Source of the DNA: Escherichia coli
Lineage (GTDB): Bacteria > Pseudomonadota > Gammaproteobacteria > Enterobacterales > Enterobacteriaceae
Direction: 5' to 3' (one strand)
Length of the DNA: 64,000 nucleotides
NCBI RefSeq assembly: GCF_013315695.1
Contig: NZ_CP054353.1
Below are positions 13,132-28,404 of the stretch, one piece after another. Numbering within the stretch: the first letter of the stretch is position 1; every line of letters starts with the position of its first letter. The translations under genes were made by a program, and so were the position numbers. Below the pieces are notes generated by a model. It worked only from the letters and a program-made list of their open reading frames with translations, searched no databases and was not told where the DNA came from.

Positions 13132-13456
13132 GCAAGCACCTTAAAATCACCATCATACACTAAATCAGTAAGTTGGCAGCATTACCAAATTTTAATTACA
13201 CTTAAGGTGTATATTTTCTATGCAAGCCATCAATTAAAGAGGTGTAATGTGCTGATGACTATTTGTAATCGTTATACATTCTGACCTGGAGTCAGAAGGT
13301 ATTTCTCTGTCGGTGTGTTCACAGGCAGTGTGGTTGATTACATGAAATTCAGTACATTTGCAGTCTCGTTGCCCTTCTCGCCTGCCTTTCGTCATTACCG
13401 ACGGTATTGAATTTCGTTTTGCCCGTTGGGGTTCTCCGGACAAGGAGTTGTTTGTT

Positions 13457-14689
13457 ATGCCACGTTTTTTTGCCCGCCATGCCGCCACGCTGTTTTTCCC
13501 GATGGCGTTGATTTTGTATGATTTTGCCGCGTACCTGTCGACGGACCTGATTCAGCCGGGGATCATTAATGTGGTCCGTGATTTTAATGCCGATGTCAGT
13601 CTGGCCCCGGCAGCCGTCAGTCTCTATCTCGCGGGCGGTATGGCGTTACAGTGGCTGCTGGGGCCGCTTTCCGACAGGATTGGCCGCAGGCCGGTGCTGA
13701 TTACCGGGGCGCTAATATTTACCCTTGCCTGCGCTGCGACAATGTTCACAACGTCTATGACACAGTTTCTTATCGCGCGTGCAATTCAGGGCACCAGTAT
13801 CTGTTTTATTGCCACCGTTGGTTATGTCACGGTGCAGGAGGCGTTCGGCCAGACAAAAGGGATCAGGTTGATGGCGATTATCACCTCCATCGTACTGATT
13901 GCGCCGATTATCGGCCCGCTTTCCGGCGCAGCTCTGATGCACTTTGTACACTGGAAAGTCCTTTTTGCCATCATTGCGATTATGGGTTTTATCTCATTTG
14001 TTGGCTTACTGCTGGCGATGCCAGAGACGGTGAAGCGCGGCGCGGTTTCATTTAGCGCCAAAAGCGTCTTGCGCGATTTTCGTAATGTCTTTTGCAATCG
14101 GCTGTTCCTCTTTGGTGCAGCAACCATCTCTTTAAGCTATATCCCAATGATGAGCTGGGTGGCTGTCTCGCCGGTGATCCTGATTGACGCAGGCGGCTTA
14201 ACGACCTCGCAGTTCGCCTGGACACAGGTTCCGGTATTCGGCGCGGTGATTGTCGCGAATGCCATCGTGGCGCGTTTCGTTAAAGATCCGACCGAACCGC
14301 GCTTTATCTGGCGTGCCGTACCCATTCAACTGGTTGGCCTCGCGCTGTTGATTATCGGCAATCTGCTGTCACCGCACGTCTGGCTGTGGTCGGTGCTGGG
14401 CACCAGTCTGTATGCTTTCGGGATTGGTTTGATTATCCCGACCTTATTCCGCTTTACGCTGTTTTCCAATAAATTACCGAAAGGGACCGTCTCCGCATCG
14501 CTGAATATGGTGATCCTGATGGTGATGTCTGTCTCGGTCGAAATCGGCCGCTGGCTGTGGTTTAACGGCGGTCGCTTGCCGTTTCATCTGTTAGCCGTCG
14601 TGGCGGGCCTTATCGTCGTTTTCACCCTGGCGGGATTGCTTAATCGCGTGCGCCAACATCAGGCTGCCGAGCTGGCGGAGGAGCGGTGA
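13457..14689 (+). CDS. mdtM: Multidrug efflux MFS transporter MdtM
   Basis: 410 aa from [13 protein letters not shown]; recognised MdtM; the track ORF extends 33 codons upstream. Confidence 0.9.
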
Positions 14690-14729
14690 TTTTTGCGCGA
14701 TCCTGCCGTCAGGCTCTATTCTTAACATT

Positions 14730-16010
14730 ATGAATAAACTCATTGAACTCAGACGCGCCAAAATGTTGGCGCTCTCTTTACTGCTTATCGCCGCTGCTAC
14801 CTTTGTCGTTACGCTGTTTTTGCCACCCAATTTTTGGGTGAGCGGTGTGAAGGCGATTGCTGAAGCGGCGATGGTCGGCGCGCTGGCAGACTGGTTTGCG
14901 GTGGTGGCGCTGTTTCGCCGCGTGCCGATTCCGATCATTTCTCGTCATACGGCGATTATCCCGCGTAATAAAGACCGGATTGGCGAAAATCTCGGTCAGT
15001 TCGTGCAGGAAAAATTTCTCGATACCCAATCGCTGGTGGCATTGATTCGACGTCACGAACCGGTGTTGTTGATTGGCAACTGGTTTAGTCAGCCAGAAAA
15101 CGCCCGCCGCGTTGGTCAGCATCTGTTGCAGATCATGAGTGGTTTTCTTGAACTGACCGATGATGCGCGTATTCAGCGCCTGCTTAAGCGCGCAGTCCAT
15201 CGGGCGATTGATAAGATCGATCTTTCCGGCACCAGTGCGTTGATGCTGGAGAGTATGACCAAAAACGATCGTCATCAGGTGCTGCTGGATACGCTGATCG
15301 CGCAGTTGATTGCTCTTCTCCAGCGCGATAAATCGCGCAAGTTTATTGCCCAGCAAATTGTTCGCTGGCTGGAGAGCGAGCATCCGCTGAAAGCCAAAAT
15401 TTTGCCTACTGAATGGCTGGGCGAACATAGCGCGGAGTTGGTTTCTGACGCGGTGAATTCTTTGCTTGATGATATCAGCCGCGATCGTGTACATCAGATC
15501 CGCCATGCGTTTGATCGCGCCACTTTTGCCCTGATCGACAAGTTGAAAAACGATCCGGAAATGGCAGCGCGAGCCGATGCCGTAAAAAGTTATCTGAAAG
15601 AAGATGAAGCTTTTAACCGCTATCTCAGTGAATTGTGGGGGGATTTACGGGAATGGCTGAAAGCGGATATCGACAGTGAAGATTCTCGTGTGAAAGAACG
15701 TATCGCGCGGGCGGGTCAATGGTTTGGCGAAACGTTAATTGCCGATGATGCCTTGCGGGCGTCGTTAAATGGTCACCTGGAACAAGCCGCGCACCGCGTC
15801 GCGCCTGAGTTTTCCGCATTCCTGACGCGCCACATCAGCGATACGGTAAAAAGCTGGGATGCGCGGGATATGTCGCGGCAAATAGAGTTAAATATCGGCA
15901 AAGATCTGCAGTTTATCCGTGTCAACGGTACGCTGGTCGGCGGTTGTATTGGGCTAATTTTGTATTTGCTGTCGCAGCTCCCGGCCTTATTCCCCCTCAG
16001 CAATTTTTAG
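14730..16010 (+). CDS. yjiN: DUF445 inner-membrane protein YjiN
   Basis: 426-aa ORF; sequence and synteny. Confidence 0.85.
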
Positions 16011-16125
16011 AAATCCATGAAAAACTAAGTGGCTAACCGCGAGAGAGATCAAATAAACCACACTAAAAGAATGGTAATAATGTGGCCTCTTTTCATTATC
16101 TCCCGTGGTACGGGGAAGGAAAATC

Positions 16126-17277
16126 ATGTCACTTGTCACCGATCTACCCGCCATTTTCGATCAGTTCTCTGAAGCTCGCCAGAAAGGCTTTCTCACCGTC
16201 ATGGATCTCAAGGAGCGCGGCATTCCGCTGGTTGGCACTTACTGCACCTTTATGCCGCAAGAGATCCCGATGGCAGCCGGTGCGGTTGTGGTTTCGCTCT
16301 GTTCCACCTCTGATGAAACCATTGAAGAAGCGGAGAAAGATCTGCCGCGCAACCTCTGCCCGCTGATTAAAAGTAGCTACGGCTTCGGCAAAACCGATAA
16401 ATGCCCCTACTTCTACTTTTCGGATCTGGTGGTCGGTGAAACCACCTGCGACGGCAAAAAGAAAATGTATGAATACATGGCGGAGTTTAAGCCCGTTCAT
16501 GTGATGCAACTGCCAAACAGCGTTAAGGACGATGCCTCGCGTGCATTATGGAAAGCCGAGATGCTGCGCTTGCAAAAAACGGTAGAAGAACGTTTTGGGC
16601 ACGAGATTAGCGAAGATGCTCTGCGCGATGCCATTGCGCTGAAAAACCGCGAACGTCGCGCACTGGCCAACTTTTATCATTTGGGGCAGTTAAATCCTCC
16701 AGCGCTTAGCGGCAGCGACATTCTGAAAGTAGTCTACGGCGCAACCTTCCGGTTCGATAAAGAGGCGTTGATCAATGAACTGGATGCAATGACCGCCCGC
16801 GTTCGTCAGCAGTGGGAAGAAGGCCAGCGACTGGACCTGCGCCCACGTATTTTAATCACCGGCTGCCCAATTGGCGGCGCAGCAGAGAAAGTGGTGCGCG
16901 CGATTGAAGAGAATGGCGGCTGGGTTGTCGGTTATGAAAACTGCACCGGGGCGAAAGCCACCGAGCAATGCGTGGCGGAAACGGGTGATGTGTACGACGC
17001 GCTGGCGGATAAATATCTGGCGATTGGCTGCTCCTGTGTTTCGCCGAACGATCAGCGCCTGCAAATGCTCAGCCAGATGGTTGAAGAATATCAGGTCGAT
17101 GGCGTAGTTGATGTGATTTTGCAGGCGTGCCATACCTACGCGGTGGAATCGCTGGCGATTAAACGTCATGTGCGCCAGCAGCACAACATTCCTTATATCG
17201 CTATTGAAACAGACTACTCCACCTCGGATGTCGGGCAGCTCAGCACCCGTGTCGCGGCCTTTATTGAGATGCTGTAA
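16126..17277 (+). CDS. yjiM: 2-hydroxyacyl-CoA dehydratase-like protein YjiM
   Basis: 383 aa from MSLVTDL; immediately followed by the activator-ATPase-like yjiL. Confidence 0.85.
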   Translation: MSLVTDLPAIFDQFSEARQKGFLTVMDLKERGIPLVGTYCTFMPQEIPMAAGAVVVSLCSTSDETIEEAEKDLPRNLCPLIKSSYGFGKTDKCPYFYFSDLVVGETTCDGKKKMYEYMAEFKPVHVMQLPNSVKDDASRALWKAEMLRLQKTVEERFGHEISEDALRDAIALKNRERRALANFYHLGQLNPPALSGSDILKVVYGATFRFDKEALINELDAMTARVRQQWEEGQRLDLRPRILITGCPIGGAAEKVVRAIEENGGWVVGYENCTGAKATEQCVAETGDVYDALADKYLAIGCSCVSPNDQRLQMLSQMVEEYQVDGVVDVILQACHTYAVESLAIKRHVRQQHNIPYIAIETDYSTSDVGQLSTRVAAFIEML

Positions 17278-17286
17278 GGAGTGGCA

Positions 17287-27607: not shown

Positions 27608-27805
27608 GTTGGAGTCATTACCCGACAGCGAGGTGTTTAGTGTGCCATGTCAGGCGAGAAATTCTATTGGATGAATCAAGTCCAACTTACTCATTGTCAA
27701 TTTCATGGTTGATTATTCGAAACGTGATGCTATTTCCAACATCAACGCTATAATTGCAGAATAATTGTAGATACATTTTTGTATATACAATTAGGGATGG
27801 CAATT

Positions 27806-28082
27806 ATGCCAATGGAGTTTGAATGGGATGAAAACAAGGCCAAAAGTAATCGGGTGAAACATGGCATCCGCTTTGAAGATGCGGTGTTATTGTTTGATGA
27901 TCCACAACATTTGTCACAGCAAGAACGCATAGAAAACGGTGAGTATCGCTGGCAGACATTACGGCATCGTGGTTATTCTGGTTGCGCATACCATCCGTTT
28001 CGAAAGCGGAAATGAAATTATTCGAATCATCAGTGCACGAAAAGCAGATCGTAAAGAGAGGAATCGCTATGAGCATGGTTAA
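27806..28082 (+). pseudogene. BrnT-like (DUF497) ribonuclease toxin gene, apparently frameshifted
   Basis: N-terminal MPMEFEWDENKAKSNRVKHGIRFEDAVLLFDDPQ in one frame ends after QTL; the conserved C-terminal IRIISARKA motif continues in another frame from about 27963 to the stop at 28080-28082; agggatgg upstream of the ATG. Confidence 0.7.
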
Positions 28083-28371
28083 ACATAAACGAGGGACCTC
28101 CTCTACACTCGATGTGCAGCATGAGGCCGAACTGAAGGCGCTGGCGAATAAATCCGACGAAGATATTGATTACAGTGATATCCCACCTTCCAGCGATGAG
28201 CAATGGTCTAACGCCGAACGCGGTAAGTTTTATCGGCCATTGAAAACTCAGGCTTCGGTGCGTATTGATGCTGATGTGATGGAATGGTTGAAGCGACCAG
28301 GTAAAGGCTATCAAACTCGCCTGAACGCAATTTTACGTGAAGCGATGCTGCGCGATCAGAACAAAAAATAA
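28069..28371 (+). CDS. BrnA-like antitoxin (ribbon-helix-helix family)
   Basis: About 100 aa from MSMVKHKRG; C-terminal GKGYQTRLNAILREAM typical of BrnA; start overlaps the toxin stop by 14 bp. Confidence 0.7.
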   Translation: MSMVKHKRGTSSTLDVQHEAELKALANKSDEDIDYSDIPPSSDEQWSNAERGKFYRPLKTQASVRIDADVMEWLKRPGKGYQTRLNAILREAMLRDQNKK

Positions 28372-28374
28372 TTC

Positions 28375-28400
28375 AGGCCGCCACATGGCGGCCATCATCC
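28375..28400. terminator. Putative bidirectional terminator hairpin between brnA-like gene and yjiA
   Basis: Palindrome ggccgccacatggcggcc between convergent stops. Confidence 0.4.
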
Positions 28401-28404
28401 AAAA

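Follow-up and report, generated by a model that had tools for sequence, protein, structure and literature searches.

The immigration control region (ICR) of this E. coli strain is very probably a degenerate, restriction-less allele that was inherited or imported ready-made, rather than made in this strain. Once a local inversion is undone, the 64-kb stretch of DNA that was analysed (the window) has the order mdtM, a 768-bp IS1, brnT, brnA and yjiA, such that solely an IS1F element, a broken brnT and an intact brnA lie between the conserved anchors yjiN/mdtM and yjiA-yjiX-btsT (Table 1). This layout is based on alignment to K-12 and on the annotation of AF3, a near-identical genome that stands in for the window plus 50 kb to each side. 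None of the three features is a type I, Mrr, McrBC or GmrSD gene, and no recognisable defence system is left between mdtM and yjiA. The original prediction for this locus had placed an IS1 and a BrnT/BrnA-like pair between mdtM and yjiA in a strain without the K-12 mcrBC-hsdRMS-mrr set. That description agrees with what is seen, except that brnT is frameshifted. The K-12 set is indeed missing, and AF3 has no annotated mcrBC, hsd or mrr gene in the equivalent of the window or in the 50 kb flanking it to the left and right, where their presence would have told against the prediction. A scan of window positions 9000-33000 at Rfam gathering thresholds gave no match.

Table 1. Features of the rearranged mdtM-yjiA locus, in window coordinates
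Coordinates	Strand	Feature	Source
11244..12011	-	IS1A at the very 3' end of yjiC, towards uxuR; 9-bp target duplication atataattc	
12012..12418	-	yjiC (DUF2686) 3' fragment; terminal ctcaacagg is half of a split target duplication	AF3 annotation, sequence
12419..13186	-	IS1F-like copy A; IRR end at yjiC side, IRL end at mdtM side	
13187..13456	+	mdtM upstream region, cut at the deletion junction (...aaattt/IS1)	
13457..25417	.	Inverted core: mdtM, yjiN, yjiM, yjiL, ytiA, yjiK, yjiJ, kptA, yjiH, yjiG, iadA, hypT, iraD, idlP, ytiD, ytiC	AF3 annotation
25441..26208	-	Extra IS1A, ytiC-yjiC intergenic; 9-bp duplication caaattcca	
26432..26854	+	yjiC 5' fragment; terminal cctgttgag, reverse complement of ctcaacagg, is the other duplication half	
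26855..27622	+	IS1F-like copy B, resident element at the island deletion; IRR end adjoins the cgacagcga that precedes brnT	
27623..27805	+	brnT upstream region, in register with IS-free strains from base 1	
27806..28082	+	brnT pseudogene, 11-bp deletion	
28069..28371	+	brnA antitoxin gene, intact, 100 aa	PF14384
28405..29361	-	yjiA, conserved right-hand ICR anchor; K-12 homology restarts at 28405	

The locus had been described in advance as a known hypervariable defence site, and the literature bears this out. A 2025 EcoSal Plus review describes the ICR as highly variable and lists brnAT among its three toxin-antitoxin systems (PMC12707154). According to the same review, just 36% of ICR loci have a type I system, so that empty alleles are usual. 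A survey of E. coli defence islands numbers the ICR as defence hotspot 36 (Hochhauser et al. preprint, 10.1101/2022.06.09.495481), and both sources give the anchors yjiN/mdtM and yjiA. The ICR of E. coli and other Enterobacteriaceae was treated by Sibley & Raleigh 2004, as cited in PMC4498929, and restriction-less versions are already on record for E. coli C (an “empty site”), W and Crooks. A literature search returned nothing useful on BrnT with yjiA, on the ICR in ST131, or on the genome MSB1_4I.

Evidence for a deletion came from the IS1 elements and their flanks. Copies A and B are inverted, 100% identical and separated by 13,668 bp, the 13.7-kb inverted block. The IS1F-like copies have 99.35% identity to K-12 IS1F over 768 bp, with terminal inverted repeats, open insA and insB frames (insA/insB'), and the A6C frameshift motif (TTAAAAAACTC, at about 27160-27170 in copy B). 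With the inversion undone, the element between mdtM and brnT is flanked by ttaaaattt and cgacagcga, and thus has no target duplication. Both this and the positions predicted for its flanks, with the mdtM upstream region starting at 13187 and cgacagcga at 27623, check out. The missing duplication marks a deletion. A perfect 9-bp duplication accompanies each of the three remaining IS1 insertions (atataattc, caaattcca and ctcaacagg), the last of which is split by the inversion, with ctcaacagg at 12410-12418 and its reverse complement at 26846-26854 (9/9 match).

The inverted core is reversed but collinear relative to K-12, C1 and Ecol_448, and the pre-inversion order, yjiA-brnA-brnT'-IS1F-mdtM...yjiC with yjiC intact, is found in C1 and MIN9. 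The inversion junction itself occurs in only two of 5,426 complete E. coli genomes, AF3 and MSB1_4I, both of which lack the extra IS1A between ytiC and yjiC. A junction search for this IS1A gave a count of 28, in which the best matches listed were all two-piece joins and included no one-piece match, and hence no evidence of sharing. The IS1A on the uxuR side has an identically placed IS1A counterpart in Ecol_448 (99.5% identity), and is also annotated as IS1A in AF3. The features that are rare here are the second IS1F, in yjiC, the inversion that it enabled, and the extra IS1A.

Homology to K-12 breaks off precisely at the two ends of IS1, with position 4791 of the K-12 locus (L005) corresponding to window 13186/13187, and position 23910 to window 28405. 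The K-12 segment between the breakpoints (rpnD', yjiR, yjiS, yjiT, yjiV', mcrCB, symE/symR, hsdSMR and mrr) is 19,118 bp (19.1 kb), rather than the roughly 30 kb originally predicted, and contains none of the anti-restriction genes that had been expected there. An IS-free allele in C25 runs in parallel with the window as far as ...aaattt near mdtM and again from cgacagcga near brnT, and has 11,268 bp (C25 8733-20000) where the window has IS1F. Upstream of brnT, C25 reads ...cccttaa followed directly by cgacagcgaggtg, and past ...aaattt both C25 and K-12 read on as gcggttaat. Ecol_542 and G3X16-2 share this IS-free architecture; at the breakpoints all three strains match the window base for base in both the mdtM upstream region and the brnT-brnA-yjiA junction, but keep 11.3 kb with a type I system and a nuclease that the window has replaced with IS1F. 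Because these IS-free relatives are uninterrupted and diverge from the window exactly at both IS1 ends, the loss is attributed to an IS1-associated deletion.

The IS-free brnTA allele contains rpn-yjiR-yjiS-symE, a non-EcoKI type I system and an Mrr-like nuclease. Its genes match PADLOC REase_I, MTase_I, Specificity_I and mREase_IV/PDC-S02, and Pfam Mrr_cat. The HsdR protein (1,087 aa) has just 25% identity to EcoKI HsdR over 219 aa, and the nuclease is a 388-aa Mrr_cat protein. Judged by this gene content, the lost island is a different allele from the K-12 mcrBC-hsdRMS(EcoKI)-mrr set, and brnTA is native to that allele. The original prediction of an IS1-adjacent deletion or replacement was therefore right as to the deletion and wrong as to the island, which was taken to be the K-12 set.

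BrnT/BrnA, originally known from Brucella abortus, is a type II toxin-antitoxin system in which the BrnT toxin is a growth-arresting ribonuclease neutralised by the antitoxin. In the window, the loss of 11 bp (ATCGGCCTGGT) after about 27958, common to about 25 genomes, throws brnT out of frame, and the brnT product covers positions 1-47 of the 77 in Pfam BrnT_toxin (PF04365), whereas the intact Ecol_448 BrnT covers positions 1-77 (4.7e-24). The gene is annotated as frameshifted in AF3, C1, LHM10-1 and MIN9. Immediately downstream of brnT and overlapping it, brnA matches BrnA_antitoxin (PF14384; 3.1e-17), and the same protein, WP_000063156.1, occurs in AF3, Ecol_448 and ST131. In intact alleles, brnA starts 14 nt ahead of the brnT stop. 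A search of NCBIfam placed neither BrnT nor BrnA nor the Mrr-like nuclease in a family, and PADLOC gave no match for BrnT, BrnA, SymE or Rpn. Given the truncated toxin, the pair in the window is predicted to be unable to work as a toxin-antitoxin module.

Junction counts were made over the 5,426 complete genomes; nearby BLAST pieces can be joined in such searches, and a few miscounts are possible. The brnTA pair is present in 2,112 genomes, is single-copy and chromosomal in all but one of them (2,111/2,112), and is contiguous with yjiA in 2,001 (37%), compared with 951 genomes that have the K-12-type mrr-yjiA junction. These 2,001 genomes are the carriers that were sought, and their number makes brnTA a common occupant of the site, the finding that had been named as refuting the prediction. 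An IS-free junction between the Mrr-like gene and brnT, with brnTA beside yjiA, is found in 881 genomes, and the IS1F-brnT junction in 1,111 (20%), ST131 included. The latter divide into 449 (8%) with the mdtM-IS1F junction of the window and 664 with the ST131-type left junction, and the counts are mutually consistent (881+1,111 gives about 2,000, and 449+664 about 1,111). The restriction-less form is thus an ordinary one, present in roughly one complete E. coli genome in five, and the site occupant is not strain-defining, contrary to what had been supposed.

The history proposed for the locus has seven steps. An ancestor would have carried mdtM-rpn-yjiR-yjiS-symE-hsdR-hsdS-hsdM-Mrr-like nuclease-brnT-brnA-yjiA, into which IS1F would have moved, 184 bp ahead of the brnT start codon. 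An IS1-associated deletion would then have removed 11.3 kb, from the IRL end of IS1 to 271 bp upstream of mdtM, taking all restriction genes and leaving a single IS1 with no target duplication. The likeliest route is intramolecular replicative transposition (adjacent deletion), the alternative being recombination between direct IS1F copies. In a small sub-lineage, the 11-bp deletion would have killed brnT, making brnA an orphan antitoxin and autorepressor gene. The still-intact IS1F would next have transposed into yjiC in inverted orientation, producing the ctcaacagg duplication, and homologous recombination between the identical copies would have inverted the 13.7-kb block from yjiC' to mdtM. 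IS1A would have inserted last, between ytiC and yjiC. The open frames, the identical copies and another deletion in LHM10-1, which starts from this IS1F and runs leftward as far as ytiD, argue for IS1F activity in this lineage. No genome was seen with IS1F upstream of brnT, both cgacagcga copies and the restriction genes retained; we therefore infer the insertion-then-deletion order and the exact mechanism. Locus anatomy, breakpoints, duplications and population frequencies are direct observations.

The 11.3-kb loss might instead have resulted from RecA-dependent recombination between two direct IS1F copies, located upstream of mdtM and of brnT, respectively. This route would likewise leave one IS1 with no duplication, and IS1F has been mobile in this lineage, where its recombination with a second copy produced the inversion. 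It nonetheless seems unlikely, given that no genome was seen with IS1F at the mdtM-upstream site alone, and that two left junctions (449 and 664 genomes), with a third in LHM10-1, are combined with one fixed IRR-brnT junction. Varied left junctions with one fixed right junction are characteristic of a resident IS that has repeatedly made one-ended deletions. A strain-specific, IS1-adjacent deletion of a K-12-type island (mcrBC-hsdRMS-mrr and neighbours) is consistent with the missing duplication and with K-12 homology stopping exactly at the IS1 ends. This is very improbable, however, since K-12 lacks brnTA and has the end of mrr 45 bp from yjiA, the IS-free brnTA alleles have another type I family and another Mrr-like gene, the junctions are common to 449 and 1,111 genomes, ST131 included, and the relatives C1 and MIN9 are already deleted. 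For these reasons we rejected a K-12-type ancestor.

It is equally improbable that IS1F and brnTA arrived jointly in a mobile cassette and displaced the resident island. Toxin-antitoxin pairs are often found on mobile elements, and the ICR is subject to cassette-like replacement, but brnTA is almost always a single chromosomal copy beside yjiA, 881 genomes have it in the same register with no IS1, and the single IS1 is accompanied by no flanking repeats; a mobile IS1-brnTA cassette was rejected on these grounds. Identical 768-bp repeats exceed short reads and can be mis-joined, so the inversion and the apparent split of the locus could conceivably be an assembly artefact. This can practically be dismissed: the yjiC'-IS1F-mdtM join is present in two independently deposited complete genomes, and the 9-bp duplication is split exactly as real recombination between the copies predicts.

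Comparison with ST131 and Ecol_448 bears on how the inherited allele may have spread. The IS1F-brnT junction is identical in the window, Ecol_448 and ST131, and the IS1F-brnTA-yjiA-yjiX-btsT haplotype is near-identical, with 0-2 differences per 500 bp among the three, compared with about 3% divergence from C25 over brnA and yjiA. This low divergence was taken to favour a single origin of the IS1F-to-btsT haplotype. The ST131/Ecol_448 allele differs from that of the window in having an IS1F with an internal stop, an intact brnT and no inversion, and in its left junction, where a 3' fragment of yghX (dienelactone hydrolase) also replaces the first seven codons of mdtM. Since this left flank is unrelated, coming from the yghX 3' end at another chromosomal locus, the history of the IS1F-bearing alleles goes beyond one simple deletion. 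It is possible, though improbable, that the IS1F-brnT junction arose once and that a restriction-less haplotype of ~4.5 kb then spread between unrelated lineages of E. coli, ST131 included, by homologous recombination at a locus prone to it. If so, the haplotype may be favoured because loss of type I and Mrr-like restriction eases plasmid uptake, and the retained brnA, which is intact even alongside a dead brnT, could be an anti-addiction factor against incoming brnT-bearing elements.

For the strain itself, the lack of a restriction system at the classical ICR site has little significance beyond bookkeeping. The yjiC::IS1F insertion, the 13.7-kb inversion and the extra IS1A are usable clone markers, and the combination of one IS1F junction with at least three left-hand deletion endpoints, in ST131 too, may merit phylogenetic study.

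Adjacent deletions mediated by IS1 and inversions between IS1 copies are classical IS1 behaviour. A recent example is described in PMC10569738. The locus follows this pattern in its fixed and variable flanks, in the absence of a target duplication after deletion, and in an inversion bounded by inverted identical copies with a split duplication; no mechanistic difference is visible. As in the type II BrnT/BrnA system, the toxin gene leads and the antitoxin gene overlaps it, and both Pfam domains (PF04365 and PF14384) are present in the predicted pair of the intact E. coli allele. Compared with the known ICR, the window has the same chromosomal site, the same anchors (yjiN/mdtM and yjiA-yjiX-btsT) and brnAT, but lacks any restriction gene, rpn, yjiR, yjiS and symE. 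Both a restriction-less ICR and brnAT at the ICR are already known.

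The window is part of the E. coli chromosome, extending from fimI to lplA, and among complete genomes the closest to it are those of isolate AF3 (NZ_OZ547117.1) and of MSB1_4I (NZ_LR898874.1). Both are 100% identical to it across 13187-28404, bar one 777-bp insertion missing from both. The original prediction described this span correctly: once an inversion is undone, an IS1F lies between ...gtaattaaaattt on the mdtM side and cgacagcgagg... on the brnT side, with no target duplication. Homology to K-12 MG1655 stops exactly at either end of this IS1F. The K-12 segment between the two breakpoints is 19,118 bp, not the roughly 30 kb that had been supposed, and contains rpnD', yjiR, yjiS, yjiT, yjiV', mcrCB, symE/symR, hsdSMR and mrr; K-12 lacks brnTA, and its yjiA lies 45 bp from the end of mrr.

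Evidence for what was deleted came from C25, a genome in which brnTA adjoins yjiA with no IS1 present. Its gene order is mdtM-rpn-yjiR-yjiS-symE-hsdR-hsdS-hsdM, a 388-aa restriction endonuclease gene, then brnT-brnA-yjiA, and the architecture is the same in Ecol_542 and G3X16-2. C25 and the window are collinear as far as ...aaattt, and collinearity resumes at cgacagcga, with C25 8733-20000 (11,268 bp) replaced by IS1F. This supports the proposed IS1-associated deletion. Judged from the C25-type allele, the genes lost are those of a complete type I system and of an Mrr-like nuclease. For the type I genes, matches were to TIGR00348 and to PADLOC REase_I, MTase_I and Specificity_I, and their HsdR shares only 25% identity over 219 aa with EcoKI HsdR, and is therefore not type IA. 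For the 388-aa nuclease, the matches are PADLOC PDC-S02/mREase_IV and Pfam Mrr_cat (3.8e-29), and its identity to EcoKMrr is 31% across the catalytic domain. The suggestion that the K-12 island itself had been lost is thus incorrect, since IS-free brnTA alleles carry a non-type-IA hsd system and a different Mrr-like nuclease.

The window contains four IS1 copies (see table). Copies A and B are inverted relative to each other and 100% identical; they share 91% identity with IS1A and 99.35% with K-12 IS1F (5 mismatches/768), and have open frames for both insA and insB. The 9 bp preceding copy A are the reverse complement of those preceding copy B; therefore, one IS1F entered yjiC by ordinary transposition. 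Recombination of this element with the other IS1F copy would then have inverted the intervening 13,668 bp. The resulting yjiC'-IS1F-mdtM join was found in only two of 5,426 complete E. coli genomes, AF3 and MSB1_4I. The rare features of the locus are the second IS1F in yjiC, the consequent 13.7-kb inversion and an extra IS1A, all of them ordinary consequences of IS1. Because IS1 copy 1 interrupts the final codons of yjiC, the reading frame annotated for this gene extends 22 bp into the end of the IS (280 aa versus 276 aa). An IS1 is present at the same site in Ecol_448, LHM10-1 and C1, and absent in ST131 and MIN9.

Coordinates of mobile elements and other features in the window
Feature	Position	Strand	Type	Flanks or location
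IS1 copy 1	11244-12011		IS1A	9-bp duplication atataattc; last codons of yjiC (window 11990-12020)
9 bases before copy A	12410-12418			ctcaacagg
IS1 copy A	12419-13186	(-)	IS1F-like	divides yjiC 3' fragment from mdtM upstream region
IS1 copy 2	25441-26208		IS1A	9-bp duplication caaattcca
9 bases before copy B	26846-26854			cctgttgag
IS1 copy B	26855-27622	(+)	IS1F-like	divides yjiC 5' fragment from brnT
IS5-like element	35326-36519		ISKpn26 in AF3 annotation	in place of lgoR, between lgoT and lgoD
tRNA-Leu(CAG) genes	46740-47184			four, in tandem

Junctions were counted across the same 5,426 genomes with a BLAST tool that may merge nearby pieces, as one of the searches showed, such that single-digit errors are possible. 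brnTA was present in 2,112 genomes, as a single copy in all and on the chromosome in 2,111, and was contiguous with yjiA in 2,001. The K-12-type mrr-yjiA junction occurred in 951 genomes, the IS-free junction of the Mrr-like gene with brnT in 881, and the IS1F-brnT junction in 1,111; on the left, IS1F was joined to the mdtM upstream region, as in the window, in 449 genomes and to a yghX fragment, as in ST131 and Ecol_448, in 664. The subsets are consistent (881 + 1,111 approximates 2,002, and 449 + 664 approximates 1,111). With the right junction in 1,111 genomes and the window-type left junction in 449, the occupant of the site is not strain-defining, contrary to the earlier claim. In the 664-genome class, mdtM and IS1F are separated by a 262-bp patch (18970-19232 of L006, from ST131 strain CU568-3; also in L003, from Ecol_448) that bears no relation to what normally lies upstream of mdtM. 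Part of this patch is a yghX 3' fragment; in E. coli W this dienelactone hydrolase gene has its home locus ~1.4 Mb away. The patch also takes the place of the first 7 codons of mdtM.

Relatives of the window suggest how the deletion arose. The deletion and the brnT frameshift are both present in C1 and MIN9, in which yjiC is intact and the inversion is absent, an arrangement that would be the immediate precursor state of the window. LHM10-1 has the same IS1F-brnT junction, with the left endpoint shifted to ytiD and iraD through mdtM gone (~12 kb of core genes; 7120-8001 of L004, the LHM10-1 sequence). An IRR-side junction that stays fixed while the IRL-side endpoint takes at least three positions is the classical pattern of IS1 adjacent deletion. 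Since no intermediate was seen, any single deletion step may instead, though less probably, have been recombination between two direct IS1F copies. Over the ~4.5 kb from IS1F to btsT, differences among the window, Ecol_448 and ST131 amount to only 0-2 positions per 500 bp, the 11-bp indel aside; C25 is ~3% different over brnA and yjiA, and in tsr all four are ~3% diverged. The near-identity from IS1F to btsT is consistent with one origin of the IS1F-brnT junction.

The intact brnT allele of Ecol_448 encodes a 95-aa product matching the full Pfam BrnT_toxin model (4.7e-24). Alignment places an 11-bp deletion in the window brnT, the product of which retains only model positions 1-47 of 77; brnT is annotated as frameshifted in the AF3, C1, LHM10-1 and MIN9 records. 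The downstream brnA encodes a 100-aa product matching BrnA_antitoxin (3.1e-17). From these sequences, the window is predicted to pair an inactivated toxin gene with a functional antitoxin gene. Of the 2,112 brnTA-bearing genomes, just 25 have at least 99% identity to the window's version; these approximate the genomes sharing the 11-bp deletion, because the 11 gap columns caused by an intact brnT bring identity down to ~98.6%.

AF3 annotation stood in for the genome of the window; across the window equivalent and 50 kb on both sides it lists no mcrBC, hsd or mrr. At 7-18 kb left of the window, AF3 has an SNF2/1,034-aa DNA methyltransferase/DEAD-box helicase cluster with a decayed phosphorothioate-dependent nuclease. 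The leuX-side island here may be the site of the lineage's remaining restriction-like defence. This island (27968-42296 of L012, the AF3 sequence; 7-22 kb left of the window start) also has an antirestriction gene and a CbtA/YeeU toxin-antitoxin pair; its helicase is a 1,126-aa DEAD/DEAH protein, and its phosphorothioate-dependent restriction endonuclease is frameshifted.

The btsT-tsr interval, just right of the anchors of the mdtM-yjiA locus, is a second variable site, holding the hpa (4-hydroxyphenylacetate) operon in G3X16-2 (20557-31777 of L011, from that genome) and lacking it in the window and K-12. At the lgoR site, the IS5-like element is present and K-12 sequence (30826-31860 of L005, from MG1655) is absent in the window and likewise in C1, LHM10-1 and MIN9. 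The site of the tandem tRNA-Leu(CAG) genes has two in AF3 and three in Ecol_448, ST131 and C25; the difference between the window and AF3 indicates that leuVPQ copy number varies even among near-identical genomes.

The immigration control region (ICR) was the earliest defence island studied and is bounded by conserved framework genes; cassette-like replacement is known there, and E. coli C has an "empty site" (PMC4498929, PMC12707154). According to a 2025 review covering 9,040 enterobacterial genomes, the toxin-antitoxin systems of the ICR are brnAT, symE-symR and rpn, and only 36% of ICRs contain a type I system (PMC12707154). In a survey of E. coli defence islands, the locus is hotspot #36, from yjiA to yjiO (mdtM) (10.1101/2022.06.09.495481). 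E. coli W and Crooks have been reported without hsd, mcrBC and mrr, with the loss in Crooks attributed to IS activity. The ICR state of the window is real and precisely placed, yet common and already documented for a well-known variable locus.
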